64,000 nucleotides of DNA from a bacterium. Lineage in GTDB: Bacteria; Patescibacteriota; Minisyncoccia; Ryanbacterales; GWA2-47-10b. A program made the translations under genes and the position numbers. Below the pieces are notes generated by a model that had not been told where the DNA came from, searched no databases, and saw only the letters and a list, made by a program, of their open reading frames with translations. The stretch spans positions 35,609 to 99,608 of the forward strand of contig JAQBTR010000001.1 of the NCBI GenBank assembly GCA_027624915.1. The letters are read 5' to 3'. Position 1 is the stretch's first letter. Each line of letters starts with the position of its first letter. Shown in pieces: positions 21,120-52,866 of this stretch.

Positions 21120-21932
21120 ATGCAATATGAGGGACCGGATGATTTTAAGGAGCAGAACGGTTACGAGGTGAATGGCACATGGTATCCTCGCGTAACACGC
21201 ATTTTGGATGTTATACCAAAGCCCGCCTTAAAATATTTTTTCCGCGAGATGGGTTCGCAAGAGGCGGCAGACAAAGTTACCAAAAAATCTGCAGAAGAAG
21301 GAACTTTAGTACATGAAATGTGTCAGAGCCTGGCAGTTGGTGAGAATGTGCACGTACCTGAGTCTGTAGCACCATCCGTTTTTGCCTTCTATGACTTTTA
21401 CAAAAAGAATAATATCCACTTTCACCCAGAGTTTATAGAAAAGACTATTTGGTCAGTAGAGCATAAGTACGCAGGCACCATCGACGCACTCGCCGAAATA
21501 GACGGCAAATTTGGTGTGTTGGATATTAAGACCTCAACTGGCGTTTTTGATACGTATGGATATCAAACAGCCGCTTATATGCAGGCATTAGTCGAAGAAT
21601 CGGTGCACAAAGCATTAGCGTTACCTCGTCAGGTAGAAAAGCGTTGGATACTGCGAATTGATCAACATCGGTTATGTCGTTTGTGCAGCGCGCGCCTTCG
21701 TGAAAAGGGGGGACGCAAAAAAATCCGAAACGCATATTCACAAAAAGCAAAAGTATGTGACCACTCATGGACCGAACCCATGGGTGAGGTACAACTCCAC
21801 TGGCTTGATAGCAAAAACGTTGATAACAATTATTATGAATATCTGAGGGACGCGAATCAGTTTAATGACGCAAAAGCAAAGTGGACACATCAAAATCGTT
21901 ATTGGCTAGAACAAATAGGATATTTTTCATGA
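21120..21932 (+). CDS. RecB-family PD-(D/E)XK nuclease (Cas4/lambda-exonuclease-like), stand-alone.
   Basis: Motif I YPRVTRIL; II/III GTIDAL...VLDIKTS; QxxxY YGYQTAAYMQAL; Cys residues at MCQ, CRLC and VCDH may form a metal/FeS site. Confidence 0.6.
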   Translation: MQYEGPDDFKEQNGYEVNGTWYPRVTRILDVIPKPALKYFFREMGSQEAADKVTKKSAEEGTLVHEMCQSLAVGENVHVPESVAPSVFAFYDFYKKNNIHFHPEFIEKTIWSVEHKYAGTIDALAEIDGKFGVLDIKTSTGVFDTYGYQTAAYMQALVEESVHKALALPRQVEKRWILRIDQHRLCRLCSARLREKGGRKKIRNAYSQKAKVCDHSWTEPMGEVQLHWLDSKNVDNNYYEYLRDANQFNDAKAKWTHQNRYWLEQIGYFS

Positions 21933-22369
21933 GTAAAGAAAAACTGATCATTTACACAGATGGCGGGTCGAGAGGAAATCCTGGGCCTTCGGCTCTTGGT
22001 GTGTCCATCAAAGACTCAAGCGGCAAGATACTCAGAGAGTTTGGCGAGACGCTTGGCCGGCGCACCAACAACGAAGCAGAGTATGAAGCGATTGTGGCGG
22101 GACTCAAAAAAGCAAAAGCTATGCTTGGCAAGACAAAGGCCAAGAAGATGACGATTGATATGCGCATGGACTCTGAACTCGCATGCCGCCAACTCAACCA
22201 TATTTACAAGGTAGAAAATGAAAAAATTATTCCACTCTTCTTGCAGATTTGGAACTTGATGCTTGATTTTGGTGAAGTTACATTTACCCACGTGTTGCGA
22301 GACAAAAACAAAGACGCAGATCGTATGGTAAATGAGGCACTTGATGGTGAGCAAGGGACGCTGCTCTAG
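21929..22369 (+). CDS. rnhA: Ribonuclease HI. Start set to the ATG at 21929, which overlaps the nuclease stop (ATGA).
   Basis: IYTDGGSRGNPGPSALG, TNNEAEYEA, DSELACRQL and ...RDKNKDADRMVNEAL RNase H catalytic motifs. Confidence 0.85.
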   Translation: MSKEKLIIYTDGGSRGNPGPSALGVSIKDSSGKILREFGETLGRRTNNEAEYEAIVAGLKKAKAMLGKTKAKKMTIDMRMDSELACRQLNHIYKVENEKIIPLFLQIWNLMLDFGEVTFTHVLRDKNKDADRMVNEALDGEQGTLL

Positions 22370-22655: not shown

Positions 22656-23648
22656 ATGCGGGCACATTATGTTATTCTCGCGCTCATTGCGGGGATTTCA
22701 TTTCCAGTTTCAATAGATATTAGAATTCCGTCGGTAATTGCCGGGGTTCTTATCGCACTTTCTTTTTGGCGACCCGAGCTACGACTATGGGCAGGGGTCG
22801 CTACAGCCTTTGTTTTAGGGGTATTACGCGCTTCATTCGGCCCGTGGGAGCTTTGGTTTGTTGGTGATATACGTATATTGCTGGAGGCTATGCGTGACAT
22901 ATTTGCCGCTCGAATTTCGCTTATATTGCCAGAACCCCATGCTTCATATTTAAATGGTCTTTTGTTAGGGCTTCGTGGTGATATTCCTATTGCAATACGC
23001 GACGCATTTCGTGATACAGGAACAAGCCACCTCATCGCGCTTTCTGGTTATAACGTAACCATTATTACTTCATACTTAGGAAAGATATTTTCTGGGTTTT
23101 GGGTGCCAGTCGTTGGAGTTGTTTTGTTTGTGTTGGGTACTGGTGCTCAAAGCTCTTTAGTGCGAGCAGCACTCATGGGTATATTGGTTCTGGGTGCTCA
23201 AAAGTTAGGGAAAAAATATACACCAACACGTGCGCTTCTTTTGGCAGCAACCCTCATGATTTTGTTTGAGCCTACAATTCTTTTTGAAGATGTTGGATTT
23301 CAGTTGTCGGTTGCCGCAACTGCGGGACTTATATATCTGACACCGATGATTGAACCGTATTTTAAATGGCTTACTAATAAGTGGTCAGTTCGCGAATCAC
23401 TTGTTGTGACATTGGCGGCGCAAGCAGCTACCTTTCCAATTATCTTTTATTATTTTGGTTCGCCATCACTATGGTCGCCATTCGTAAATGTGTTAGTTAT
23501 CGTAACGATACCGGCTGTGATGTTTTTTGGTTTTGTAGCTGGCGTTGCTGCATTTGTGCACACAACAATCGGTATTATTGCGGTGAGTCCAGCCTATGCG
23601 CTACTTTTATACCAGCTTTTTATTATTGAGTTTTTCGCGAAGCTGTAG
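22656..23648 (+). CDS. comEC: ComEC/Rec2 competence (DNA-channel) domain protein, encoded on its own without OB or MBL domains.
   Basis: ...EPHASYLNGLLLGLRGDIPIAIRDAFRDTGTSHLIALSGYNVTII... matches the Competence-domain signature; ~8 TM segments. Confidence 0.75.
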   Translation: MRAHYVILALIAGISFPVSIDIRIPSVIAGVLIALSFWRPELRLWAGVATAFVLGVLRASFGPWELWFVGDIRILLEAMRDIFAARISLILPEPHASYLNGLLLGLRGDIPIAIRDAFRDTGTSHLIALSGYNVTIITSYLGKIFSGFWVPVVGVVLFVLGTGAQSSLVRAALMGILVLGAQKLGKKYTPTRALLLAATLMILFEPTILFEDVGFQLSVAATAGLIYLTPMIEPYFKWLTNKWSVRESLVVTLAAQAATFPIIFYYFGSPSLWSPFVNVLVIVTIPAVMFFGFVAGVAAFVHTTIGIIAVSPAYALLLYQLFIIEFFAKL

Positions 23649-24843
23649 GGTGTGCAAAGTCTAGGTCGCGCGCTCTAATGAGGTTAAACGCAATTGCGGC
23701 GATAGCGGCAAAAACAAAACTCCAATTAAGCGAAACCAAGAGAGAGACCCCAATAATGATAAGTGCAATCAAGACCTTACCAAAATTTAGAGCCATTTCT
23801 TTGATGACGGTATATTCGTCCACATAGTGTCCTTCGTCAGCTGCCATTTCGTAATCGAGCGTAAGAAAAGGAGTTTGCGCGAAGATTTGTACAACACGAT
23901 GATAGACGCCGGCGATAAAAATATGAAATGCGGTCAGTATAAAAATTTTGAAAATCCACCCAAAGGCATAGAGCCAACTACCAAAGCCCAGCACCTTTTC
24001 TTTTCTGATATTCTTATCCATATATTTTCCAAGGGTGAGTTGAAGTATGACAGCAACACCGGTGATAAGTGTTGAGAGAGCACCCACCTGAAAGTAGTCT
24101 CCTTTAAGAAGTTGAAATATAAATATCGGCCACACAACAAAACCAAAAATATTTTCGGCACCGTGTGCGGCATAGGCCCAAAAGACACGGGTTTTCATAC
24201 TTTTGAAAAGCTCTTGCCATGTTTTTTTGACGGACCAGCTAAACTTTTCTTTTGCATGAGGAACTGCAGTATATGCGAGCGAGGCCACAATAAACATGGC
24301 TATTCCAAGTAGGAATAAGACCTCAAATCCATAAAGGCTAATGATTACTCCAGAGATAAGTGGGATAAAGACACTCAAAATGAGTTGAAGCGCGATAAGT
24401 GCTGATAGTTCTCGACCCCTACTTTCACGATCGGTAAACTTTGCCATGTCTATGTGGTAGGGAAGCCAATAGAGAAGCCTAAATAGAGTAAGTGCCGCAA
24501 TCGTCAGCGGGATAATATAGAGAATGTTTTCTTTGTTTGCAAAGTAAAAAAGTCCATAAAAGATTGAGCTTGCGTACATACTTATAATAAGCGCCCTTCG
24601 AAATCCAAAGGTATTGAGCTTGATGGCAATAAAAGGGACAGAGATGGCGTATAAGAATTGACCAACTGCCATATAGAGCACGACCAAAATAAAACTTTCA
24701 TTGAGAAGTTCATAAAGAAAAATGGGGAGAAAAAGCCCCATGAGTCCAAACCCAAGGGCGGTGATAGTCCGAGCAATAGTAAGTGACACAAATGCTGGAG
24801 AAACGGATTTGTCGAAATATGTCATTTGTATTGGGAAGTGCAT
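23623..24843 (-). CDS. Major facilitator superfamily transporter.
   Basis: 406 aa; 12 predicted TM helices; MFS-like loop motif FGFRRALI. Confidence 0.7.
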   Translation of the reverse strand: MHFPIQMTYFDKSVSPAFVSLTIARTITALGFGLMGLFLPIFLYELLNESFILVVLYMAVGQFLYAISVPFIAIKLNTFGFRRALIISMYASSIFYGLFYFANKENILYIIPLTIAALTLFRLLYWLPYHIDMAKFTDRESRGRELSALIALQLILSVFIPLISGVIISLYGFEVLFLLGIAMFIVASLAYTAVPHAKEKFSWSVKKTWQELFKSMKTRVFWAYAAHGAENIFGFVVWPIFIFQLLKGDYFQVGALSTLITGVAVILQLTLGKYMDKNIRKEKVLGFGSWLYAFGWIFKIFILTAFHIFIAGVYHRVVQIFAQTPFLTLDYEMAADEGHYVDEYTVIKEMALNFGKVLIALIIIGVSLLVSLNWSFVFAAIAAIAFNLIRARDLDFAHPTASRKTQ

Positions 24844-24927
24844 ATTAGCTATTGTACTACAGTTGGCTTGATTTTATCGGGGTCTTTGGGCTAGTTTTAA
24901 TACAGAGGTTAAGGGGCGGAGGGCCTT

Positions 24928-25869
24928 ATGCATTCGTTTATGCGCGGACTACTTTTAGCTCCAATTTTTTTGTTGGCATGTGCACGAGTTGTTTCTCACG
25001 ATGACTTTTTGAGAACAGAACAACTTTCTCGTGATGTAAAGAAGTTTGGCGAGAGTATCGGTATAGATTCAACCAAAGTTCTTACAAAAAGCTACAAAAA
25101 AGGAGAACGTGTATTTTCCTTTATGTGGATTTGGGTTCAAAAAAACGGTGTTATTTCTGCTGAACTTGTAGATAGGGTATATATAAAAATTGAGGGTCTC
25201 GTTGAAGACACCAACCCTCTCGAGCACCCAAGGGTAAAAAAGACGTTTCTAAAATATTCATCAGGATACAGTCTTTTTTATAGGCATGAAAATCAGAGTT
25301 CGTCCACCGATTCTTTGATAACACCTAGCTTTGTACGAGAAAGACAAAGACGACAGGTTGAAGTAATTCTCCATGAAGACCTACACCACAGTGTAGGGGC
25401 GCCGTACAGGATAGATGAGTCTATTTCGACGGCACTCGGTCATTTGGCAACGGTCAAATTTTTTGAAAATATTGGAGATGCGACCGGTCTCGAAGAGGCT
25501 AAAAGTCAGCTTCGAGCAACTTGTCGCGGGCCAAGCAGAGACCTTAATACTTTTGTTGTGCGGGCGAGACGCCTGTTTGCTACATTTCCACTCAAAGAAG
25601 CTCGCTCTCGCATCAGGTCAATGATACGCTCATATCCTTCGTACTATAGATACCGATGGCCCATAACAAAAGATGGGTCTCCAGTTGAAGCCATGTTAAG
25701 CCACGACCTTGTGTATTTAAAATACTGCGACAGTATTGTTGAACTCTATGAACATACGGGTGGGGATCTAAAGTCTATCATTACTTTTGTTCGGACAATA
25801 CCGGATGAAATAACAGACGAAGAGTTTGAAGACCTGCTTCTATCATTTAGAGTATCATATGTCCGGTAA
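24928..25869 (+). CDS. Putative lipoprotein with an HEXXH zinc-peptidase motif.
   Basis: Signal peptide plus lipobox LLAC; ILHEDLHHSVG (HExxH). Confidence 0.45.
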   Translation: MHSFMRGLLLAPIFLLACARVVSHDDFLRTEQLSRDVKKFGESIGIDSTKVLTKSYKKGERVFSFMWIWVQKNGVISAELVDRVYIKIEGLVEDTNPLEHPRVKKTFLKYSSGYSLFYRHENQSSSTDSLITPSFVRERQRRQVEVILHEDLHHSVGAPYRIDESISTALGHLATVKFFENIGDATGLEEAKSQLRATCRGPSRDLNTFVVRARRLFATFPLKEARSRIRSMIRSYPSYYRYRWPITKDGSPVEAMLSHDLVYLKYCDSIVELYEHTGGDLKSIITFVRTIPDEITDEEFEDLLLSFRVSYVR

Positions 25870-25893
25870 CATCTGTTACCGGTTTTTGTTTGC
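25864..25893 (+). terminator. Terminator ccggtaac-atct-gttaccgg followed by tttttgtttg.
   Basis: Perfect 8-bp stem overlapping the stop codon, then a T-rich tract. Confidence 0.6.
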
Positions 25894-25924
25894 AGAAAAC
25901 AAAAACCCCAGCTAACATGCATTC

Positions 25925-26779
25925 ATGTTTTCCCGCCTCCAGAAGTTTGTGTTAATCGCCCTCACCCTAGGAGCGTTTTTTGTTTGGAATACAATTTTTA
26001 CTCAAGACTCTGGATTATTAAAAGTTGTGTTTTTGGATGTGGGACAGGGGGATGCGACTTTTATTGAAACTCCATCAGGTAATCAGGTTTTGGTTGATGG
26101 AGGGTATGGACGAAAGGTTTTATCAGAACTTGGACGTGTTATGTCAGGTCATGACCGCACCATTGATGTTTTGATAGCAACACATACAGATAGTGATCAT
26201 CTCGGAGGACTCGTTGAGGTTTTAAATAGGTACGAAGTAACCACTGTTATTGATAATGGATTCAAAGCAGAGTCCGGCGTCTACAAAGAATGGGAGCGCC
26301 TACTTGTAGAAAAAAATATAAAACGAATAATAGCTAACTCGGGTGATGTTTTAGATTTGGGCGAAGGGGCTCTTCTAGAGATATTAAGCCCAACAGAAAA
26401 TGATAAAAATGATACGAGCGCCAACGATGTCATGGTTGTTTCAAGGCTTATATATGGCGAACATGAGTTTTTGTTAGCAGGAGACATTGAGCGCGGAGAT
26501 GAGCTTGCGCTTGCAAAATCCAACGCCGAGCTCAGTGCAGATGTTTTGAAGGTTGGTCATCATGGGTCCAAGACGTCTTCAACTAATCTATTTTTAAAAA
26601 GTGTTGCGCCAGTTTATACAGTAGTTTCTGTAGGGAATAAGAATATATATGGTCATCCAGACGAAGAGGTATTGAGAAGACTTGCGAGTCTTGGGGCAAC
26701 CATTTTTCGTACAGATACAGATGGAAGGATTGCATTCTTTTCAGATGGTTTTATTCTCGGGTTTGACCCCCCATACTAA
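25925..26779 (+). CDS. comEC: ComEC-type metallo-beta-lactamase domain protein (the C-terminal domain of ComEC) encoded separately.
   Basis: N-terminal TM; ...VVFLDVGQGDATFIETPSGNQVLVDGG...IATHTDSDHLGG...VGHHGSKTSS... ComEC-MBL pattern. Confidence 0.75.
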   Translation: MFSRLQKFVLIALTLGAFFVWNTIFTQDSGLLKVVFLDVGQGDATFIETPSGNQVLVDGGYGRKVLSELGRVMSGHDRTIDVLIATHTDSDHLGGLVEVLNRYEVTTVIDNGFKAESGVYKEWERLLVEKNIKRIIANSGDVLDLGEGALLEILSPTENDKNDTSANDVMVVSRLIYGEHEFLLAGDIERGDELALAKSNAELSADVLKVGHHGSKTSSTNLFLKSVAPVYTVVSVGNKNIYGHPDEEVLRRLASLGATIFRTDTDGRIAFFSDGFILGFDPPY

Positions 26780-35045: not shown

Positions 35046-35666
35046 ATGAAACTATCAGTAAACAACGTTATAAAAATTCTTCTCGGTTTTCTTTTTGTGC
35101 TCAATGTTAGTGATGGATTGTTTACGCCAATCATTGCTGTTTTTGTTGGCAACACAATTTTAGGAGCCTCACTTTCTACAGTTGGTTTTTCTATAGCAAT
35201 ATATTCAATCTCAAAATCTATTGTTCAGATTCCTGTAGCTCGTTGGTTGGATACTCAGATAACTGAAAGAATTGATTTTTATGTTTTGCTCACAGGGGTT
35301 GTTATCGGAATTGTATTTCCCCTTGCTCTCATCTTTACAACAACAATCACAATGCTCTATCTTCTTTTTGCCCTTACCTGTGTTGGGGCTGCATGTTTAA
35401 TGGCGTCATTCTATGCGCTCTTTAATGATCATATAGATAAAGACAGGGCGAGTTATGAGTGGAGTTTGTTTAGTGTTGGTGGCTTAACAATCTCTTCTGC
35501 GATAGGTGGCGCTGTCGGCGGTGTAATTGCAGATTACTATGGGTTCAAAACTTTGTTTCTTATAAGTGCGATTCTTTATGCTGTTGGTGGCTCCATACTT
35601 TTGTTTTTGTACCCCCATATTTCTAAGTTCAGAATTCCAAAAGTTTTATCTGCTGAGACTAGCTAA
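35046..35666 (+). CDS. 6-TM membrane protein, MFS-half-like.
   Basis: Six TM helices; PVARWLD resembles an MFS loop motif. Confidence 0.45.
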   Translation: MKLSVNNVIKILLGFLFVLNVSDGLFTPIIAVFVGNTILGASLSTVGFSIAIYSISKSIVQIPVARWLDTQITERIDFYVLLTGVVIGIVFPLALIFTTTITMLYLLFALTCVGAACLMASFYALFNDHIDKDRASYEWSLFSVGGLTISSAIGGAVGGVIADYYGFKTLFLISAILYAVGGSILLFLYPHISKFRIPKVLSAETS

Positions 35667-41634: not shown

Positions 41635-42217
41635 AAACATGACGTACACTTTCCTTGAGCCTTTGTAGTTCATTTATTTTTTCAAAAAGCGATGGAGTGT
41701 CTGGAGCTGCACGATTGACAGCCTTTTCTATTTCATGAAAATAGGTAGCCTTTTGCAATTCATCTTCCGAAAATTCTTGCCACCGTTCGAGTGATTCACG
41801 CTCTTCTTCAGAGTTTACTGGTGCATTGGCCCAGGCTGCTTGAGCCTCCTCGAGAGTGGTAATGGCGGCTACCTCATAGGCAGATAATTGTCTCCAGTGA
41901 GTGAGCGCTATTTTTTTTGCATCACATTTTTCGTCATCGGGCGCGCGTTCAAAAATAAATTTAGTTTCGTATATGTCTGTTGCTCTAAGAGCGAGCCTGG
42001 TTGATATTCGACACCACCTATCAAGGGCCTGTGTCTCTGCAACGCTTCCTTGAGGGGAGGTCATATGAACCATTTTTGCTTGAGCAAGTATCGAATACAG
42101 AGTGTAGTTACCATTATGTTTGGGCAGCGTATCCAGATTAATTTTTGCTGTATAGATGGCACGACAGCCATTTGTCAAAATTGTGATCAGTGCGATTGCT
42201 ACAAGCGCAAATTTCAC
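41633..42217 (-). CDS. Hypothetical lipoprotein.
   Basis: Signal peptide plus LTNGC lipobox; no other motif. Confidence 0.5.
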   Translation of the reverse strand: MKFALVAIALITILTNGCRAIYTAKINLDTLPKHNGNYTLYSILAQAKMVHMTSPQGSVAETQALDRWCRISTRLALRATDIYETKFIFERAPDDEKCDAKKIALTHWRQLSAYEVAAITTLEEAQAAWANAPVNSEEERESLERWQEFSEDELQKATYFHEIEKAVNRAAPDTPSLFEKINELQRLKESVRHV

Positions 42218-42247
42218 CGTCTTATCTCCTATCTATATATAACCCTG

Positions 42248-42284
42248 CCAAAGAAAAAAAATACCCGCAAGGATTATCCACTTG
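42248..42284 (-). terminator. Minus-strand terminator acccgcaag...cttgcgggt with a T8 run on the minus strand, at the 3' end of the 42274..43447 minus-strand gene string.
   Basis: Perfect 9-bp stem; reverse complement is followed by tatttttttt. Confidence 0.55.
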
Positions 42285-42516
42285 CGGGTTTGAGGGTTAT
42301 AGACCTGACGGTAAAATCTCCAATTGCTCGTGCGAGTTTGTGATTTTGTTCGACGACCAGTTTGAGGATGCTATCTGAAAGCTGGCACCCTTTAAATGTT
42401 GCCCAAGGCAAGAAGAAGAGCGCAACCACCCCAAAGGTGATGGTTTCTTCGTGCCCGAGTTGATGCTCAACGCTGACCTTTGTTAGGAGATCGAGCGCTC
42501 CTCCATGGATTTTCAC
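42274..42516 (-). CDS. Hypothetical protein of 80 aa.
   Basis: ORF only; its 3' end overlaps the terminator stem. Confidence 0.35.
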   Translation of the reverse strand: MKIHGGALDLLTKVSVEHQLGHEETITFGVVALFFLPWATFKGCQLSDSILKLVVEQNHKLARAIGDFTVRSITLKPASG

Positions 42517-42617
42517 CGTGTTAACTCCTTTCGGTGCATGGATTGAACCGCCCCTACTATACTATAACTGAGCCATTTTGTAAATAGTTTCAAAGCCAAA
42601 AAAAAGAGCAGTAATTA

Positions 42618-43019
42618 CTACTGCTCGTGAATTGCGAGGGTTGCTTCAACCCCATCGATAAGGGCTTGGAGGTATGCCATGGTATGAAGCGCTGATTCGC
42701 GTGCTTCTCTGTCGTCGGGATTTTGTCGTACACGATCTATGTGACGTGCCAGTTCAGATACGCTATGTGAAAATGAGCCCATTTGCTCGGCGTGTTGAGA
42801 AAGACATGTTGTCTTGTCAGATTCAGTGCTGGCCTCGATGACTTTTGTCATGCGACGGTCCAGGTCGTGGGCCACCTGATCATTTACTCGATCATGAAAT
42901 GCTCGAATGACATAGAGACTCTCTGGTCCATAGACCTGAGGTCTAAATGATACGATATTTGCTTCGCTCGCATTACAGATGGAGCGAGCCGAGTCTTCTA
43001 CTGCTCGTTCGAACGACAT
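42618..43019 (-). CDS. Hypothetical protein of 133 aa.
   Basis: ORF only; GC-richer than the core genes. Confidence 0.45.
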   Translation of the reverse strand: MSFERAVEDSARSICNASEANIVSFRPQVYGPESLYVIRAFHDRVNDQVAHDLDRRMTKVIEASTESDKTTCLSQHAEQMGSFSHSVSELARHIDRVRQNPDDREARESALHTMAYLQALIDGVEATLAIHEQ

Positions 43020-43099
43020 CCTAACCTCCTTTTATCTAGGAGAAAATATACCATAAAAAACTTATTTTGTAAATAAAAGCACTTCCCGAGTAGGAAGTG

Positions 43100-43447
43100 T
43101 TATGAAATTGGCTTTCGCATGGCGGTCAAGATGATTTCTCGTAGCTGGTAGTTTTGAACACTAAGGTCTTTTCTTGTTGGCCTGGTACATTCTTCGGGGA
43201 CTGTGTCCTTGGGGATCTCTCCACGAATTGCACCATGAATAAGTTCTATGAGAACTCTATTTTCAAACATCAGATATTCTTCACAACTTTCATATCGCTC
43301 AATTTCCTCAGACTGACGTTTGTTACGTTCTTCCAAGTCTCTAACATCAGCCTCAAGTTCTTCCACTCGTGCACGGAGTTGGATTGTTTGTCTTACAGCG
43401 GCACTACCCCTTGGTAATTCGCTAGAGCTCCAAGCTGTTTTTTTCAT
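43100..43447 (-). CDS. Hypothetical coiled-coil protein. Start assigned to the ATG at 43447 (MKKTAWSS...), which has RBS ggagg 5 nt upstream.
   Basis: RBS plus ATG; the track's TTG start at 43459 lacks an RBS. Confidence 0.5.
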   Translation of the reverse strand: MKKTAWSSSELPRGSAAVRQTIQLRARVEELEADVRDLEERNKRQSEEIERYESCEEYLMFENRVLIELIHGAIRGEIPKDTVPEECTRPTRKDLSVQNYQLREIILTAMRKPIS

Positions 43448-43477
43448 AGGTGCCTCCAAAAAAATTGTAACAAAAAT

Positions 43478-43520
43478 GCCCGGTTTGCGATACGACTATG
43501 CTAGTCGTTCGCAAACCGGG
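43478..43520. promoter_or_regulatory. Near-perfect palindrome with 21-bp arms: gcccggtttgcgatacgacta / tagtcgttcgcaaaccgggc. Operator or terminator.
   Basis: 20 of 21 positions complementary; on the minus strand it is followed by a U-rich tract and then the RBS of the 43447 gene. Confidence 0.5.
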
Positions 43521-43528
43521 CTTCAGCT

Positions 43529-43747
43529 TCAGTTCTTGGCGGTCTTCTTGCCGGCGCGAGCGCCACCGGCCTGCGAGCCACCGACGCCAGCGACCGGCGC
43601 ACCGCGCGTGACGCTGTCAGTCGGCTGGTTTCGGCGACGACGATGGGCGCGCTCCTGGCGACCACTCTTCCCAGAGTTGGCCTTGGGAGGGCAGTTGAAC
43701 TTTTTGTGCTCACGAGTTCCGGTACCACACTTACTGCAATGTGCCAT
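43529..43747 (-). CDS. Small basic Arg/Gly-rich protein with an N-terminal zinc-ribbon-like motif.
   Basis: Strong RBS aaggagg 6 nt upstream of the ATG; MAHCSKCG...FNCP; locally >60% GC. Confidence 0.5.
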   Translation of the reverse strand: MAHCSKCGTGTREHKKFNCPPKANSGKSGRQERAHRRRRNQPTDSVTRGAPVAGVGGSQAGGARAGKKTAKN

Positions 43748-43782
43748 TCTCTTCCTCCTTGGTTGGGCTCGCTACCGGCGAG

Positions 43783-44139
43783 CTAGTCTTTTCTCATCCC
43801 GCTGTCACCCGTTACTGGGTAGGGGATTTTTTGTTTCGCGATCGATACCCTGACAAGGGTGAAGACTGCGATGCTAACCCAGACCACCTCTAGGCCGACC
43901 ACCGGCCAGGCTGTTCTCACGTAGGCATGAAAGCCGTACGCGAGACCGCCTACGAGATTGATCCATTGGTACGAACGCCCAGTTGCCGCGACCTTCTCGG
44001 TCGAGACCAGGGCGTATGCAACGATGAAGCAAATGGTTCCGAACCACCCGACGTATTCGTCGAAAGCAAGTTGCAGGACACTCCTCCTGTCTGAGAACTG
44101 ATTTGTGAGCATATTAGCATGAAAATAAGCATTTGTCAA
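43783..44139 (-). CDS. Small 3-4 TM membrane protein.
   Basis: Hydrophobic ORF of 118 aa. Confidence 0.45.
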   Translation of the reverse strand: MTNAYFHANMLTNQFSDRRSVLQLAFDEYVGWFGTICFIVAYALVSTEKVAATGRSYQWINLVGGLAYGFHAYVRTAWPVVGLEVVWVSIAVFTLVRVSIAKQKIPYPVTGDSGMRKD

Positions 44140-47324: not shown

Positions 47325-48296
47325 CTATCCCTGACTTTTTTTGTTAGATAGGCTAGATAATATTTTTTCAACCGCCTTTATATCATCATCTTTTAATATA
47401 GAGAGACCCATTACCTTTTTGCTGTGTTTTTTGAGGATCGTTATTTTTTTCTTAAGCTCCTTTTCGTCTACTTCGTCACTTTTGCTTACAAATATATATT
47501 CTGGCTTGTCCATTAGTTCTGGATTATGTGCTTTGAGTTCTTTTCGTATTGTTTTGTAGTCGGCAACTGGAGTGGTGGATTCCGCGGATATAAAATGAAA
47601 TAACGTGCCAGTTCGTTCTACATGGCGCAAAAATTTTATTCCGAGACCCTTCCCTTTCGAGGCCCCCTCAATAAGTCCTGGGATGTCAGCTAAGATGAGG
47701 TCATGATATACACCAAGTGCTGGTTCAAGTGTAGTAAATGGGTAGTTAGCAACCTTACTTTGCGTATTGGTGATTTCGTTAATGAGGCTTGATTTGCCAA
47801 CATTTGGAAGACCAACAAAACCAACGTCAGCAATAAGCTTAAGCTCAAGACGTAACTCGAACTCTTCTCCAGGAAGTCCGGGTTGAGTTTGGGTAGGGCT
47901 CGTGTTGGTGGGTGAGCGGAAGCGATAGTTTCCCTTTCCTCCGAAGCCTCCTTTGGCGAACAATGTTTTTTCGCCGATAATTAAAACTTCTATGTCTTTT
48001 TTTGTGGTGAGGTTATGAATGACGGTCCCAACTGGGATTTTAATAACAAGGTCTTCTCCATGAGCACCATCATTGAGTTGTATTTTACCAGCTTCACCAT
48101 CCTCTGCTCTCACTTCTTTTTTGTATCTAAATTGATTCAATAGGTCGATATTGGACGATCCCTCTATATATATATTGCCGCCACGCCCTCCAGAACCTCC
48201 AGTTGGTCCCAAAGCAAGCGCATTCTTATCAAATGCGGACTTTCCAGGGCCACCGTGACCGGCAGCTAATGTGATTGTTATATCATCAATAAGCAT
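47325..48296 (-). CDS. obg: GTPase Obg/CgtA.
   Basis: Obg fold with Gly-rich loops (GGPGKS..., GGSGGRGGN, GGFGGKGN); G domain ADVGFVGLPNVGKSSL, ...DIPGLIEGA... Confidence 0.9.
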   Translation of the reverse strand: MLIDDITITLAAGHGGPGKSAFDKNALALGPTGGSGGRGGNIYIEGSSNIDLLNQFRYKKEVRAEDGEAGKIQLNDGAHGEDLVIKIPVGTVIHNLTTKKDIEVLIIGEKTLFAKGGFGGKGNYRFRSPTNTSPTQTQPGLPGEEFELRLELKLIADVGFVGLPNVGKSSLINEITNTQSKVANYPFTTLEPALGVYHDLILADIPGLIEGASKGKGLGIKFLRHVERTGTLFHFISAESTTPVADYKTIRKELKAHNPELMDKPEYIFVSKSDEVDEKELKKKITILKKHSKKVMGLSILKDDDIKAVEKILSSLSNKKSQG

Positions 48297-48339
48297 AAAG
48301 TAGTTGTGGGGCTACTACCAAACTTCATTTCTACCAAAA

Positions 48340-48436
48340 TCTCTAAATTTCGGCTACAACGTGTCAAAAGTTTTTTACCAATACCTATGGCATTAAGCTC
48401 AAAATTTTTGACTACGTTTCGCTCAAAATTTAGAGA
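48340..48436. repeat. Copy B of the ~95-nt intergenic repeat family. Its ends are perfect 10-bp inverted repeats, ctctaaattt / aaatttagag.
   Basis: Aligns by eye with copies A and C; internal tcaaaagtttttt / aaaatttttgac complementarity suggests a long hairpin. Confidence 0.7.
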
Positions 48437-48486
48437 CCCTGCTAACGAAAGCAAGTTTAGGAGTAGCCCCATTGTAGCGTGTATTG

Positions 48487-48515
48487 TCTTTAATCCAAAA
48501 AAACATCCTCGCACG
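48487..48515 (-). terminator. Minus-strand terminator atcctcgca-cgt-tgcgaggat plus T7 on the minus strand, after the oxidoreductase gene.
   Basis: Perfect 9-bp stem; A7 on the plus strand equals a T-run on the minus strand. Confidence 0.65.
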
Positions 48516-48524
48516 TTGCGAGGA

Positions 48525-50165
48525 TTAGAATCGGAGCATTTCGGCTGCTGCATTTCGACCGCAGATTCCCATGACGCCACCACCAGGATGACTAGCCGCT
48601 CCACACAAAAACAGGTTTTTGATTGGAGTTGTATGGTCGGCCCATCCGGCGACAGGTCTAAATGAAAAGAGCTGATGGGGGAGCATTGCCCCCTGAAAGA
48701 TGTTTCCACCAGTAAGACCGTATCTTGCCTCAATGTCAGGTGGCGCGAGCACTTCGCGATGGATGATTGAATTTCTAAATCCAGGTGCATACTGCTCGAT
48801 TTCTTGAGTACACAGATCCCCAAACCATTCGCGCTTATCATCCCACGTTCCGTCTCTTAGCTCGTACGGAGCGTATTGCACAAATATGTTCATGACATGA
48901 TGACCACTTCCTTCAGGTACGAGCGTTTTATCGATACTCGTTGGAAGTGTCATCTCGAGCACGGGTTCGTCGCTTGGATGCCCCATGAGCGCATCATGAT
49001 ATGCTTGCTCTATGTATCTGACATCAGGTGAGATGTGCATCGTACCCATATGGCACTCACCAATCCTGCCACCTGTTGGGAATGCAGTGAATCTTGGAGG
49101 TTCAGAAAGCACAAGATTGATTTTTGCTGATGCGGACGAGTAGTCAATTTTTTCTACTTCCTGTGCGAATAGCACAGGAAGTTCTTTTCGATCAACAAAG
49201 TGTAGAAAGGTATGATTAGCGTCCACGCTTGAAGCAATTTGTCTTGCATTAATGACAGTACCATCTTTGAGTTCGACAGCGCGTGCTTCTCCACCTATGA
49301 CAAAAATTTTGCCGACAGGTGATTCGCGCTTGATATCAACACCCAGGTCAAGACATGTTTTTTTGAGTGCACTGGCCAGTCCGCCCATGCCTCCACGGAC
49401 GTAGCCCCATACTCCACGAGCTCCACCCGCATCTCCCATTACGTGATGCAAGAGTACATAGGCACTACCAGGTGAGGACGGTGGCATGAAGGCGCCAATG
49501 ATGGCGTCTGTTGCGAGCGTTGCTTTGAGTGCATCGGTCTCGAACCATCTATCAAGAATAGGAGTCGCAGCACCTGTCAAAAACCTGATGGCATCCGGAA
49601 CATCATGCCCCAGTGAAATAGCAGACTTAAAGAGGGTAAAGAGTTTACGCGCATCGCGCATTCGTTTTGTGACACCCATCTGACGCCAAAAGTGTCCCAT
49701 TGGTATAATATCGGGAGCCGCCATCTGAATCGCGGGCTCGATTGCATCAGCAATGCGTTCAAGCAATGCTTCGTATGCGGGGTACCTTTCTGCATCAGTT
49801 TTACTAAAGCGCGAAATTTCTTCTTGGTTACGAACCATGTCTGCCCCTAAGATGAGGCTTCGATTATCAAGGAGTGGCGTAAACGAAGATGGTACTCGAG
49901 GTAGGATCTCGAGACCATTTTGCTTAAGTTTGAGACTATCAATGATGTCACTTGGCATGAGACTTAGAACGTATGCGGCAGTTGAGATTTTGTATCCCGG
50001 CCACAACTCTTCAGTTGTCGCCGCACCTCCAAGCACATGACGTCGCTCAAGTACGCAAACCTTCTTACCGGCTTTTGCCAAATAAGCAGCACACACAAGT
50101 CCATTGTGTCCGCCACCAATGATGATCGCGTCGTAGTCATGCTCTTCCATCACGATTCCTTTCAA
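48525..50165 (-). CDS. FAD-dependent oxidoreductase, phytoene desaturase (CrtI)-like / amine-oxidase family.
   Basis: N-terminal dinucleotide fold YDAIIIGGGHNGLVCAAYLAKAGKKVCVLERR; 546 aa; C-terminal ...GAASHPGGGV... Confidence 0.75.
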   Translation of the reverse strand: MKGIVMEEHDYDAIIIGGGHNGLVCAAYLAKAGKKVCVLERRHVLGGAATTEELWPGYKISTAAYVLSLMPSDIIDSLKLKQNGLEILPRVPSSFTPLLDNRSLILGADMVRNQEEISRFSKTDAERYPAYEALLERIADAIEPAIQMAAPDIIPMGHFWRQMGVTKRMRDARKLFTLFKSAISLGHDVPDAIRFLTGAATPILDRWFETDALKATLATDAIIGAFMPPSSPGSAYVLLHHVMGDAGGARGVWGYVRGGMGGLASALKKTCLDLGVDIKRESPVGKIFVIGGEARAVELKDGTVINARQIASSVDANHTFLHFVDRKELPVLFAQEVEKIDYSSASAKINLVLSEPPRFTAFPTGGRIGECHMGTMHISPDVRYIEQAYHDALMGHPSDEPVLEMTLPTSIDKTLVPEGSGHHVMNIFVQYAPYELRDGTWDDKREWFGDLCTQEIEQYAPGFRNSIIHREVLAPPDIEARYGLTGGNIFQGAMLPHQLFSFRPVAGWADHTTPIKNLFLCGAASHPGGGVMGICGRNAAAEMLRF

Positions 50166-52008: not shown

Positions 52009-52351
52009 TGGTGGAGACGGGCGGAATCGAACCGCCGTCCGAAGAGTAATATAGAAAGAATTTGTTACAAGCTTGTCTAGTTTTTAAGGCTAGAGGTTTG
52101 CTCGATGGGGTGTCGCGATACCGTATCGAGCAGTAGTATCGCCAAGCTCGAATTTATAACACCGGTTACCAGACAGTCGAGCGCCAACTGGGCCGATGGC
52201 CTATGCTATTTAAGCGTAGGCGGGTACGAGCTCTCGCTCGCCAAATAAGTTTGCACTTATCAAGTACACGGACAGTTTTGAAAGAGTTAGCCGTGTCGGC
52301 TCTTGCTTGATCCCTAATATAAAAGCTTCCCCGTCGAAGCCTAGCGTCCCC
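52009..52351 (-). ncRNA. ssrA: tmRNA (transfer-messenger RNA, SsrA), ~343 nt with an encoded CCA end. Predicted tag reading frame resumes at GCA-AAC and reads ANLFGERELVPAYA-stop (UAA at 52210-52212).
   Basis: 5' end GGGGACGCUAGGCUUCGACGGGG (compare E. coli GGGGCUGAUUCUGGAUUCGACGGG). 3' end GGCGGUUCGAUUCCGCCCGUCUCCACCA (T-arm + acceptor + CCA). A 7-bp acceptor stem can form with one G-U pair. Adjacent to smpB. Confidence 0.85.
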
Positions 52352-52422: not shown

Positions 52423-52866
52423 TTATTCGTACTTGAGAGTTCGGCTGATGTTGCGGTCAGACTCACGCTTTTTAATCTTGTCGCGTTTGTCGAACTTCTT
52501 TTTACCACGTCCAACACCAAATTCAAGTTTTAAGTTTCGACCCTTATTATACAACGAAATAGGCACTAATGTCAAGCCCTTCTCGTGCTCTTTTCCAGCC
52601 AGATAGCTAAGCTCTTTTTTACCTAAAAGAAGCTTGCGCGTACGTCCTACATCATAGTCACTTGGAGTGTTTGCTGATTGGTATGGTGGCACATGTCCTC
52701 CAATTAAAAATGCCTCACTTCCGCGGACAATCACGCGAGCTCCATCGAGCTTTGCATCTCCGCGTCTGATTGCTTTTACTTCATATCCAAAAAGCTCGAT
52801 GCCTGCTTCGAACTTCTCAAGAATCTCATAATCAAAATAAGCTTTTTTGTTTGATGCTAGTGCCAT
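52423..52866 (-). CDS. smpB: SsrA-binding protein SmpB.
   Basis: ...NKKAYFDYEILEKFEAGIELFGYEVKAIRRGDAKLDGARVIVRGSEAFLIGGHVPPYQ... SmpB signature; basic C-terminal tail. Confidence 0.9.
   Translation of the reverse strand: MALASNKKAYFDYEILEKFEAGIELFGYEVKAIRRGDAKLDGARVIVRGSEAFLIGGHVPPYQSANTPSDYDVGRTRKLLLGKKELSYLAGKEHEKGLTLVPISLYNKGRNLKLEFGVGRGKKKFDKRDKIKKRESDRNISRTLKYE

Follow-up and report, generated by a model that had tools for sequence, protein, structure and literature searches.

Channel and nuclease genes that probably represent two halves of a split ComEC in a Patescibacteria genome

The metallo-beta-lactamase (MBL) domain of the DNA-uptake protein ComEC is a Mn2+-dependent nuclease that is needed for efficient transformation, as described for Moorella and B. 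subtilis (PMC8579336). Substitution of the two motif II aspartates abolished the nuclease activity of the Moorella ComEC CTD and lowered the transformation of B. subtilis 10-100 fold (PMC8579336). In full-length ComEC the transmembrane helices TM10 and TM11 lie at the periphery; TM11 shows mobility, and a flexible linker attaches the MBL domain (PMC13539106). The first-pass annotation of the DNA analysed here had described channel and MBL domains as fused in most bacteria, which overstates the case since Lactamase_B is carried by only 52% of the Competence-domain proteins (PMC6299819); Competence-only ComEC proteins are known to support transformation (PMC12455585; PMC6299819). Not all ComEC proteins possess the OB fold, as the family also includes C and CL profiles. 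Natural transformation of the Saccharibacterium S. epibionticum is supported by a channel protein that has no MBL domain fused to it (PMC10633639), and according to Meheust et al. 2019 (PMC6744442) the Patescibacteria essentially lack the fusion of ComEC with the MBL domain. No paper was found in the literature stating that the nuclease persists in these bacteria as a separate linked gene.

The window, i.e. the whole 64 kb stretch of Patescibacteria DNA that was analysed, contains both open reading frames which had been proposed as separate channel and MBL parts of ComEC, here termed ORF1 and ORF2 (Table 1). Both are located on the plus strand with the channel gene first, lie 2.3 kb apart and are already named ComEC/Rec2 in the public annotation. 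The profile searches back their ComEC domain identity, and a profile scan of all open reading frames in the 64 kb window detected neither a fused comEC nor a second Competence or ComEC-type MBL gene.

Table 1. Coordinates of the features of the split comEC locus within the window.
Feature	Position	Strand	Description
ORF1, comEC channel gene, 330 aa	22656..23648	+	three N-terminal TM helices, followed directly by the Competence domain
Competence (channel) domain, aa 102-329 of ORF1	22959..23642	+	Pfam PF03772 envelope
Inserted gene 1, MFS transporter, 406 aa	23623..24843	-	PF07690 (MFS_1), E 1.9e-18
Inserted gene 2, predicted lipoprotein, 313 aa	24928..25869	+	lipobox LLAC, HEDLH motif
Terminator-like hairpin and T-run between lipoprotein and MBL genes	25863..25882	+	consensus scan: 8 pairs, 5 GC; pattern match only, count of such sites in the region not above shuffle expectation
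ORF2, ComEC-type MBL nuclease gene, 284 aa	25925..26779	+	short basic N-tail, one TM helix, predicted extracytoplasmic MBL domain
Membrane anchor of ORF2, aa 8-26	25946..26002	+	hydropathy; homologous to TM11 of fused ComEC
MBL motif II, H87-T-D89-S-D91-H92 (ComEC-type HxDxDH metal site)	26183..26200	+	
H212-H213-G-S motif of ORF2	26558..26569	+	conserved MBL motif residues, as also D187 (bridging Asp) and H244

ORF1 was found to carry the Competence domain only. It matched PF03772 with an E-value of 4.2e-41 (141.5 bits; Pfam gathering cutoff 23) and the NCBIfam model TIGR00360 (ComEC_N-term) with 65.1 bits (cutoff 36.5), and the Pfam search returned no match to either DUF4131/OB fold (PF13567) or Lactamase_B. 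Against the ComEC/Rec2 equivalog TIGR00361 it scored 62 bits over model positions 122-350, below the curated cutoff of 190.05. Residues 86-309 of ORF1 correspond to residues 215-442 of the solved full-length ComEC 30bt_A (E 8.6e-20), and the solved ComEC 9vc6_A likewise aligns with ORF1. Judging from the alignment to the Neomoorella ComEC, ORF1 comprises TM1-3, the non-spanning helices NS1-4, TM4-9 and NS6-7, and is devoid of both TM10 and the MBL domain. The AF2 model of ORF1 is a confident all-helical membrane bundle (pLDDT 93.9, pTM 0.86) containing no beta strands; a Foldseek search with this model against a PDB library (to 2026-04-08), which evidently holds no ComEC cryo-EM entries, gave nothing at E <= 0.001. 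Relative to the other Patescibacteria ComECs of ~500 aa, ORF1 lacks an OB insert of ~140 aa, visible as an alignment gap of ~140 columns, and the C-terminal TM helix. It is of full length relative to its own clade, which consists of 28 protein clusters of 282-357 aa including that of the window and has lost the OB fold and TM10. The Competence-domain residues G105, H125, S130, G131, G163, R170, F215, L217, S218, N278 and P286 are invariant among 120 homologues.

ORF2 is a ComEC-type MBL protein with its own N-terminal membrane helix, as had been recognised before. It matched Lactamase_B (Pfam, E 1.4e-12), positions 427-663 of TIGR00361 (E 7.6e-36; 123.5 bits, below the cutoff of 190.05) and the isolated ComEC nuclease domain 9ic4_A (E 3.2e-38), and its residues 13-276 correspond to residues 517-789 of 30bt_A (E 7.2e-39). 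All ComEC-type metal ligands are present (HxDxDH, bridging Asp, HH and H motifs). In 30 stand-alone homologues of ~45-60% identity D91, H92, D187, H212, H213, G214 and S215 are invariant, and H87 and H244 nearly so. In alignments with 30bt_A and with fused Chloroflexota ComEC, the membrane anchor corresponds to the helix that precedes the MBL domain. Among the stand-alone homologues, 97% share L13 and 93% share W21 of this helix, a conservation which would be unexpected for a generic anchor and was counted in favour of ORF1 and ORF2 being two halves of ComEC. The hydrophobic helix is preceded by R4 and K7, and according to the positive-inside rule the N-tail is predicted to be cytoplasmic and the MBL domain extracytoplasmic.

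The presence of a minus-strand MFS transporter gene and of a gene encoding a lipoprotein with an HEXXH motif between the two halves was confirmed. The MFS gene is convergent with comEC, overlaps its 3' end by 26 nt and is absent from the corresponding position in the relatives L003-L007. The lipoprotein belongs to a rare HEXXH family with only 53 representatives among 1.84 billion proteins, in which H149, E150 and H153 are invariant and E164 is nearly so. PF10023 ("putative aminopeptidase") was matched by six of 32 family members with a best E-value of 1.4e-06, and no PDB match was obtained for the lipoprotein; from its sequence it is likely to be a zinc peptidase and a distant relative of PF10023. 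The synteny comparison showed that the window shares its flanks with the same relatives, namely RNase H upstream and a histidine kinase, a Big_13 protein, NDK and beta-CASP downstream, and in two close relatives among them the channel and MBL genes are only 46 and 4 nt apart. The adjacency of the genes in these two genomes and the conserved flanks indicate that the gap of 2.3 kb in the window results from a local insertion. In the closest relative found, no MBL gene is present within 2.7 kb downstream of the channel gene, and the best-matching MBL gene of the same sample is located on another contig.

The split arrangement had initially been taken as a peculiarity of this genome, a view that did not hold, as the split ComEC is the norm in Patescibacteria. 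None of the 31 Patescibacteria-labelled loci sampled encodes a fused ComEC. In 24 of the 27 evaluable loci, which represent many classes, the channel gene is located upstream of the MBL gene on the same strand at a distance of <=2.5 kb, and in three evaluable loci the MBL gene has no channel gene within 5-8 kb. Unrelated genes, frequently encoding a superoxide dismutase, interrupt the pair in 15 of the 24 linked loci. Since such intervening genes are often encoded on the opposite strand, in the window as well, co-transcription of the two halves is not conserved. In Chloroflexota, the group with the most similar MBL domains, the fused form predominates (17 of 20).

According to the Pfam, NCBIfam and 30bt_A matches, ORF1 and ORF2 cover consecutive, non-overlapping parts of ComEC, which was counted in favour of their being the two halves of one DNA-uptake protein with channel and nuclease acting in trans. 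We consider this reading, which corresponds to the two-subunit machine already suggested by the first-pass annotation, probable and the best available hypothesis. The pairwise distances of channel and MBL proteins were correlated with r = 0.71 in 30 split pairs, a value reached by none of 1000 partner shuffles, and those of the two domains of 22 fused proteins with r = 0.84. Given the peripheral position of TM10 and TM11, the mobility of TM11 and the flexible linker in full-length ComEC, a break at this site appears structurally tolerable. We infer that the two proteins associate physically and serve DNA uptake. ORF1 would represent a minimal channel subunit without OB fold or TM10, and ORF2 a nuclease subunit whose single TM11-equivalent helix spans the membrane. 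The TM11-like helix and the MBL domain would dock on the channel, where the nuclease may degrade the non-transported strand of the incoming DNA at the channel mouth, and the other strand would pass through ORF1. The contribution of the OB-fold loop to the positioning of the MBL domain in full-length ComEC (PMC13539106) was counted against this reading as the OB fold is missing here, and so were the frequent interruption of the pair and its occasional unlinking. A single-sequence concatenated AF2 model of ORF1 and ORF2 was too poor for use (pLDDT 40.7). The more specific proposal that the Patescibacteria ComEC is a genuine two-subunit machine, in which the channel of the window's clade is reduced to TM1-9 and NS1-7 and the nuclease is supplied in trans via the TM11-like helix, is put forward tentatively. 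If true, it would define the minimal DNA-conducting core in a natural way and would explain, for one sizeable portion of the bacterial tree, by what means the non-transported strand is degraded where ComEC has no fused nuclease; the uncoupled nuclease might also be expressed separately for nucleotide scavenging.

It seems rather unlikely that the two halves, while homologous to ComEC, have become independent, with ORF1 alone acting as ssDNA channel and ORF2 as a free-standing, membrane-anchored surface nuclease or phosphodiesterase which, undocked, would scavenge nucleotides by degrading DNA from the environment or some other phosphodiester. Such a role would agree with nucleotide synthesis being generally beyond these bacteria (PMC6744442), with the pair being often interrupted and sometimes unlinked, and with the ComEC MBL domain being structurally closest to a teichoic-acid phosphorylcholine esterase (PMC12455585). 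Furthermore, Bacillota, Armatimonas and contigs labelled archaeal contain ComEC-type MBL proteins that have no Competence gene nearby, so that this type of MBL can work without a channel partner. The partner may also be dispensable: in the annotation table of the transformable S. epibionticum ML1, the comEC required for transformation has DUF4131 and Competence domains only, no second ComEC/Rec2 gene is listed, and the sole protein annotated as "MBL fold" has 211 aa, belongs to PF13483 and is encoded elsewhere. However, the same-strand linkage within 2.5 kb, which 24 of the 27 evaluable loci from many Patescibacteria classes have retained, speaks against independent halves, as do the conserved L13 and W21 of the TM11-like anchor and a co-inheritance nearly as tight as that of fused domains. 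An artefact is highly improbable, whether through frameshift or decay of a fused gene or through mis-assembly with foreign DNA between the halves. Although the contig is metagenome-assembled and the lipoprotein/MBL junction is covered by only one assembly, neither ORF is disrupted, each begins with ATG, and both are of full length compared with dozens of homologues of the two-gene type. This architecture was recovered repeatedly from independent samples and by different assemblers, the independent Logan assembly contig L002 also shows the channel/MFS junction, and an ENA scaffold contains the whole locus. Moreover, the flanking synteny is kept on both sides, the GC content is even across the region and no long repeats flank the insert.

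With regard to its origin, the split probably arose once near the base of the Patescibacteria by fission of a fused gene. In the neighbour-joining tree of the MBL domains, which is midpoint rooted and without support values, the split MBLs from these bacteria group together in one cluster adjoining the fused Chloroflexota cluster, and the fused forms of Acidobacteriota, Margulisbacteria, Symbiobacterium and Gemmatimonadota are placed further out. The opposite direction, an ancestral unfused two-gene state, had been raised by the first-pass annotation and is now the less favoured, indeed improbable, alternative; under it, Patescibacteria would never have possessed a fused ComEC, and other phyla would have joined adjacent channel and TM-anchored MBL genes. 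In favour of it, genes fuse more often than they split in general, and where a TM-anchored MBL gene lies directly 3' of a channel gene, loss of a stop codon would fuse exactly these two. Pimentel and Zhang (PMC6299819) have also reconstructed an ancestor with the Competence domain only, followed by repeated gain and loss of Lactamase_B. On the other hand, ORF2 carries a membrane helix which is the homologue of TM11 in fused ComEC, down to the conserved Trp, and the single cluster of split MBLs beside fused forms argues weakly for one fission as more parsimonious than several independent fusions. Following the presumed fission, the junction between channel and nuclease would have become a frequent site of gene insertion; in the genome of the window the genes of the MFS transporter and the putative zinc-peptidase lipoprotein would have been inserted there, so that the two halves would no longer be co-transcribed.

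Full-length ComEC/Rec2 as known from Neomoorella carbonis (PDB 30bt) and B. subtilis shares with the locus described here the homologous channel core, TM11 and the MBL domain with its HxDxDH motif. It differs in being a single polypeptide and in possessing the OB fold between TM3 and NS1 as well as the beta-strand, TM10 and the cytoplasmic loop linking NS7 to TM11, all of which are absent here. The typical Patescibacteria pair consists of a DUF4131 and Competence protein of ~500 aa and a stand-alone "ComEC/Rec2 family" MBL protein of ~285 aa. The window resembles it in the two-gene architecture, gene order, strand and the TM-anchored MBL protein (45-60% identity), whereas the OB fold and TM10 were additionally lost in the window's clade and the junction carries the MFS transporter and HEXXH lipoprotein genes instead of the superoxide dismutase, VTT/DedA protein or methyltransferase found elsewhere. 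The Competence-only ComEC of Helicobacter pylori (ComEC/ComE3; the "C" profile of Pimentel and Zhang) is, like ORF1, a channel without OB fold or MBL domain. However, a single N-terminal TM helix is predicted for the H. pylori protein (PMC13539106) compared to three in ORF1, and no ComEC-type MBL partner is known in H. pylori, whereas a ComEC-type nuclease gene is located 2.3 kb downstream here. EndA of Streptococcus pneumoniae, a membrane-bound nuclease with a gene of its own, sets a precedent for degradation of the non-transported strand beside the ComEC channel (PMC8579336); EndA belongs to an unrelated nuclease family, whereas ORF2 is the ComEC MBL domain itself.

Transforming DNA universally enters the cell through ComEC. 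As proposed in the first-pass annotation, comEC is present in the window as two genes, of which ORF1 carries only the Competence domain of the channel and ORF2 the ComEC-type metallo-beta-lactamase (MBL) domain, according to Pfam, NCBIfam and solved structures. The profile searches suggested there as a check assigned ORF1 to Competence of Pfam and both ORFs to ComEC models of NCBIfam. The two genes it had placed between them, a minus-strand MFS transporter and a protein carrying a lipobox and the motif HEDLH, were likewise found, and when all ORFs of the 64 kb window were scanned with profiles, no further Competence or ComEC-type MBL gene was detected. Based on the identities of the ORFs, the intervening genes and the lack of a second copy in the window the observation is regarded as confirmed. 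The window is a metagenome contig from Patescibacteria (candidate phyla radiation); its own proteins are deposited as "MAG: ... [bacterium]", and their closest homologues are labelled as Patescibacteria group. No further competence genes were revealed by Pfam annotation in the 30-50 kb stretch of the window.

Coordinates of the comEC genes and of other features in the window
Feature	Position	Strand	Basis
RNase H gene	21120-22369	+	RVT_3/RNase_H
ORF1, comEC channel, 330 aa	22656-23648	+	Pfam Competence
MFS transporter gene	23623-24843	-	PF07690
HEXXH lipoprotein gene, 313 aa, lipobox and HEDLH motif	24928-25869	+	sequence motifs
ORF2, MBL-fold protein, 284 aa	25925-26779	+	Pfam, NCBIfam
206-aa ORF	35046-35666	+	MFS_1
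tmRNA gene	52009-52351	-	
smpB	52423-52866	-	
Class I tRNA synthetase, 1105 aa	55503-58820	+	Pfam

The Competence domain is the sole Pfam match of ORF1 (E 4.2e-41, aa 102-329). In NCBIfam ORF1 scored above the cutoff for ComEC_N-term (TIGR00360) and covered positions 122-350 of the full-length ComEC/Rec2 model, and a search against solved structures aligned its aa 86-309 to residues 215-442 of 30bt_A, a chain of the full-length ComEC of Neomoorella carbonis (E 8.6e-20). An alignment with 21 homologues indicated that ORF1 has full length within its own clade, which comprises 28 protein clusters of 282-357 aa including the window's own, none of them with DUF4131 (0/28). Compared to the commoner Patescibacteria ComECs of about 500 aa, the aligned proteins of this clade lack the OB-fold insert of about 140 residues after the third transmembrane (TM) helix and also about 40 residues at the C-terminus. 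The AF2 model of ORF1, which rests on 120 homologues, was confident (pLDDT 93.9, pTM 0.86) and all helical, with only a six-residue loop at the OB-fold site. A Foldseek search of the PDB with this model gave no match (best E 0.54) in a library reaching to 2026-04-08, evidently without the ComEC cryo-EM entries. No separate OB fold was found in the window using a small home-made OB profile, nor by Pfam on the checked neighbours.

ORF2 matched positions 427-663 of the full-length ComEC/Rec2 model of NCBIfam (E 7.6e-36), the isolated ComEC nuclease domain 9ic4_A (E 3.2e-38) and, with its aa 13-276, residues 517-789 of 30bt_A (E 7.2e-39), so that ORF1 and ORF2 align to consecutive stretches of one chain. 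The protein consists of a basic N-terminal tail (R4, K7), one hydrophobic helix and the MBL domain. Its own N-terminal membrane helix, already noticed in the first reading, spans aa 8-26 and was aligned to TM11 of fused proteins. Among 30 stand-alone homologues L13 of this helix is kept in 97% and W21 in 93%, and the tryptophan is common to many fused proteins in the alignment. The ComEC-type metal site is intact (H87xD89xD91H92, D187, H212H213, H244), its residues being invariant or nearly so. Loss of the motif II aspartates abolished nuclease activity and reduced transformation 10-100 fold in the systems studied (PMC8579336).

The cryo-EM structure of ComEC contains 11 TM helices, of which TM1-3 precede the OB fold, and the channel is lined by TM4-9; after TM9 come the non-spanning helices NS6 and NS7, then TM10, a cytoplasmic helix and the mobile TM11 (PMC13539106). 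According to this description and an alignment including fused Chloroflexota proteins, ORF1 stops directly after NS7, and the TM11-equivalent helix of ORF2 is preceded by seven residues in the same alignment. The beta-strand, TM10 and the basic cytoplasmic loop which connect NS7 to TM11 in fused proteins are missing from both ORFs. The break is located at the one place in ComEC with peripheral, flexible structure, and the channel of the window, without OB fold and TM10, shows which parts of ComEC are dispensable.

No connection with DNA uptake is evident for either of the intervening genes. The family of the HEXXH lipoprotein is rare, 1.84 billion proteins containing 53 representatives of it at 50% clustering; H149, E150 and H153 are invariant, and 6 of 32 members have a weak match to PF10023 ("putative aminopeptidase"). 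The lipoprotein had no match in the PDB, and it is probably a zinc-peptidase lipoprotein. The channel and MBL genes of two close relatives are same-strand neighbours separated by 46 nt (L003-L005) or 4 nt (L006, L007), and both relatives share the upstream flank (RNase H) and the downstream flank (histidine kinase, Big_13 surface protein, NDK, beta-CASP nuclease) of the window. The synteny comparison proposed earlier therefore identifies the 2.3 kb gap as two genes inserted into a conserved pair. It is very unlikely that the two-gene arrangement is an artefact. In another close relative the 2.7 kb downstream of the channel gene contain no MBL gene, and the matching one was found on another contig of the same sample. 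A recognisable mobile element was considered for the insert and rejected due to the lack of long direct or inverted repeats, a GC anomaly and a tRNA. A terminator-like hairpin was detected between the HEXXH lipoprotein gene and ORF2; the counts of the promoter and terminator scan did not exceed the shuffled control, and the cited sites are pattern matches only.

The RNase H gene is located directly upstream of comEC also in all close relatives examined (L003, L006, L091), and its upstream neighbour in the window is a weak PD-(D/E)XK nuclease-like gene. The comEC upstream region is a conserved neighbourhood of nucleic-acid enzymes.

Elsewhere in the window, the class I tRNA synthetase is probably an IleRS, and its Pfam order (tRNA-synt_1, His_Phos_1, tRNA-synt_1) suggests an inserted histidine-phosphatase domain. 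The match of the 206-aa ORF to MFS_1 is confined to positions 5-173 of 347, the first half of the model, and the ORF may represent a truncated or split second MFS transporter. The tmRNA gene, with the tag ANLFGERELVPAYA, adjoins smpB. The GC content is raised at 42001-44000 (0.48) and at 48001-50000 (0.47), the latter including a flavin amine-oxidase-like gene, compared to about 0.42, and the GC skew is reversed; these stretches could be foreign DNA.

The best matches of the channel search were all unfused, with either Competence only or DUF4131 and Competence. The MBL search returned 6759 proteins at E <= 0.001, the best 120 of which were all short (240-314 aa) and MBL-only; many of these 120 already bear the NCBI or JGI name "ComEC/Rec2 family competence protein". 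For a census of the relatives of the MBL protein, one genome per species was used, resulting in 80 loci that were classified with home-built profiles and grouped by record label. The 31 Patescibacteria loci comprised no fused gene, 24 split pairs and seven MBL genes only (four of them at contig edges and not judgeable), compared to 17 fused, two split and one MBL-only among the 20 Chloroflexota loci. The split, which had been taken as unusual, is therefore ordinary within the phylum. Each of the 24 split Patescibacteria pairs has the channel gene first, on the same strand as the MBL gene and at most 2.5 kb upstream of it; nine pairs are adjacent (<250 nt apart), and in the other 15 a stretch of 580-2500 nt intervenes. 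The genes located there are heterogeneous (VTT/DedA protein, methyltransferase, proline dehydrogenase with a CAP protein, malic enzyme), and a minus-strand Fe/Mn superoxide dismutase repeats in eight loci. This recurrent association (Sod_Fe_C and Sod_Fe_N; loci L008, L014, L016, L023, L028, L029, L041, L046) spans several Patescibacteria classes.

Stand-alone ComEC-type MBL genes without a nearby channel gene were detected in Bacillota, Armatimonas and two archaeal-labelled contigs. The latter (L066, Hadesarchaea label; L069, Bathyarchaeia label) encode MBL domains with 37-39% identity to ORF2 in ORFs of 378-514 aa, with no Competence domain nearby. Sporadic splits outside Patescibacteria were found in L054 (Armatimonadota) and in L039 and L044 (Chloroflexota). 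The channel and MBL ORFs of L054 and L039, in different frames, abut or overlap; this may reflect either a genuine split or a frameshift. Those of L044 are 6.3 kb apart. Three MAG contigs labelled "uncultured Gammaproteobacteria" (L056, L065, L080) carry a Patescibacteria-type split ComEC, and their MBL proteins fall inside the Patescibacteria group near Magasanikbacteria; the label is probably due to mislabelling or bin contamination.

In a neighbour-joining tree of the MBL domain, midpoint-rooted and without support values, the split Patescibacteria proteins formed one cluster beside the fused Chloroflexota cluster, with other fused forms further out; the exceptions were two Peribacteria loci grouping with the Chloroflexota cluster. 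The channel-protein distances correlated with the MBL-protein distances at r = 0.71 across 30 split pairs, a value reached by none of 1000 partner shuffles, compared to r = 0.84 for the two domains of 22 fused proteins. The two halves are thus co-inherited. Together with the tree and the TM11 homology of ORF2, this co-inheritance speaks for one fission near the base of Patescibacteria. The ancestral unfused state considered in the first-pass annotation, with fusion having occurred in other lineages, is still conceivable, though less probable.

The nuclease domain is missing from about half of all ComEC proteins, and Silale et al. 2021 stated the degradation of the second strand without it as an open question (PMC8579336). 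That these bacteria essentially lack the ComEC-MBL fusion was reported by Meheust et al. 2019 (PMC6744442). The survey by Pimentel and Zhang 2018 was limited to Competence-containing proteins, so that a detached nuclease was invisible to it (PMC6299819). The literature searched yielded no paper that explicitly describes a separately encoded ComEC nuclease, nor one in which the nuclease persists as a linked gene anchored by TM11, although such absence is no proof. Judging from the sequences, Patescibacteria may have kept the nuclease as a separate membrane-anchored protein usually encoded just downstream of the channel gene, a simple candidate answer to the second-strand question for this group. 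This is relevant as Patescibacteria depend on external nucleotides and natural competence is their only genetic tool. The insight is incremental, since annotation pipelines already name both genes ComEC/Rec2 and the absence of the fusion has been published: the window contains a two-gene ComEC, further without OB fold and TM10, that is ordinary within its phylum.

Weighing the points for and against a complex, we consider it rather probable that the two genes encode a two-subunit system, in which ORF1 would be the channel subunit and ORF2 a membrane-anchored nuclease supplied in trans. It is more doubtful that ORF2 acts as an independent surface nuclease. An AF2 prediction of the ORFs concatenated as a single sequence was unusable as a complex model (pLDDT 40.7, pTM 0.28). 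Several findings argue against an obligate complex: co-transcription is often lost across the split loci, the pair is occasionally unlinked, and other lineages possess the ComEC-type MBL without a channel gene. For no Patescibacterium other than S. epibionticum has comEC been proven necessary for transformation, and the genome table of this species lists no second ComEC/Rec2 gene (PMC10633639). Its comEC consists of DUF4131 and Competence only, which also counts against an obligate complex, as does the difference from full-length ComEC, where the OB loop helps to position the nuclease, whereas the proteins of the window lack this loop.
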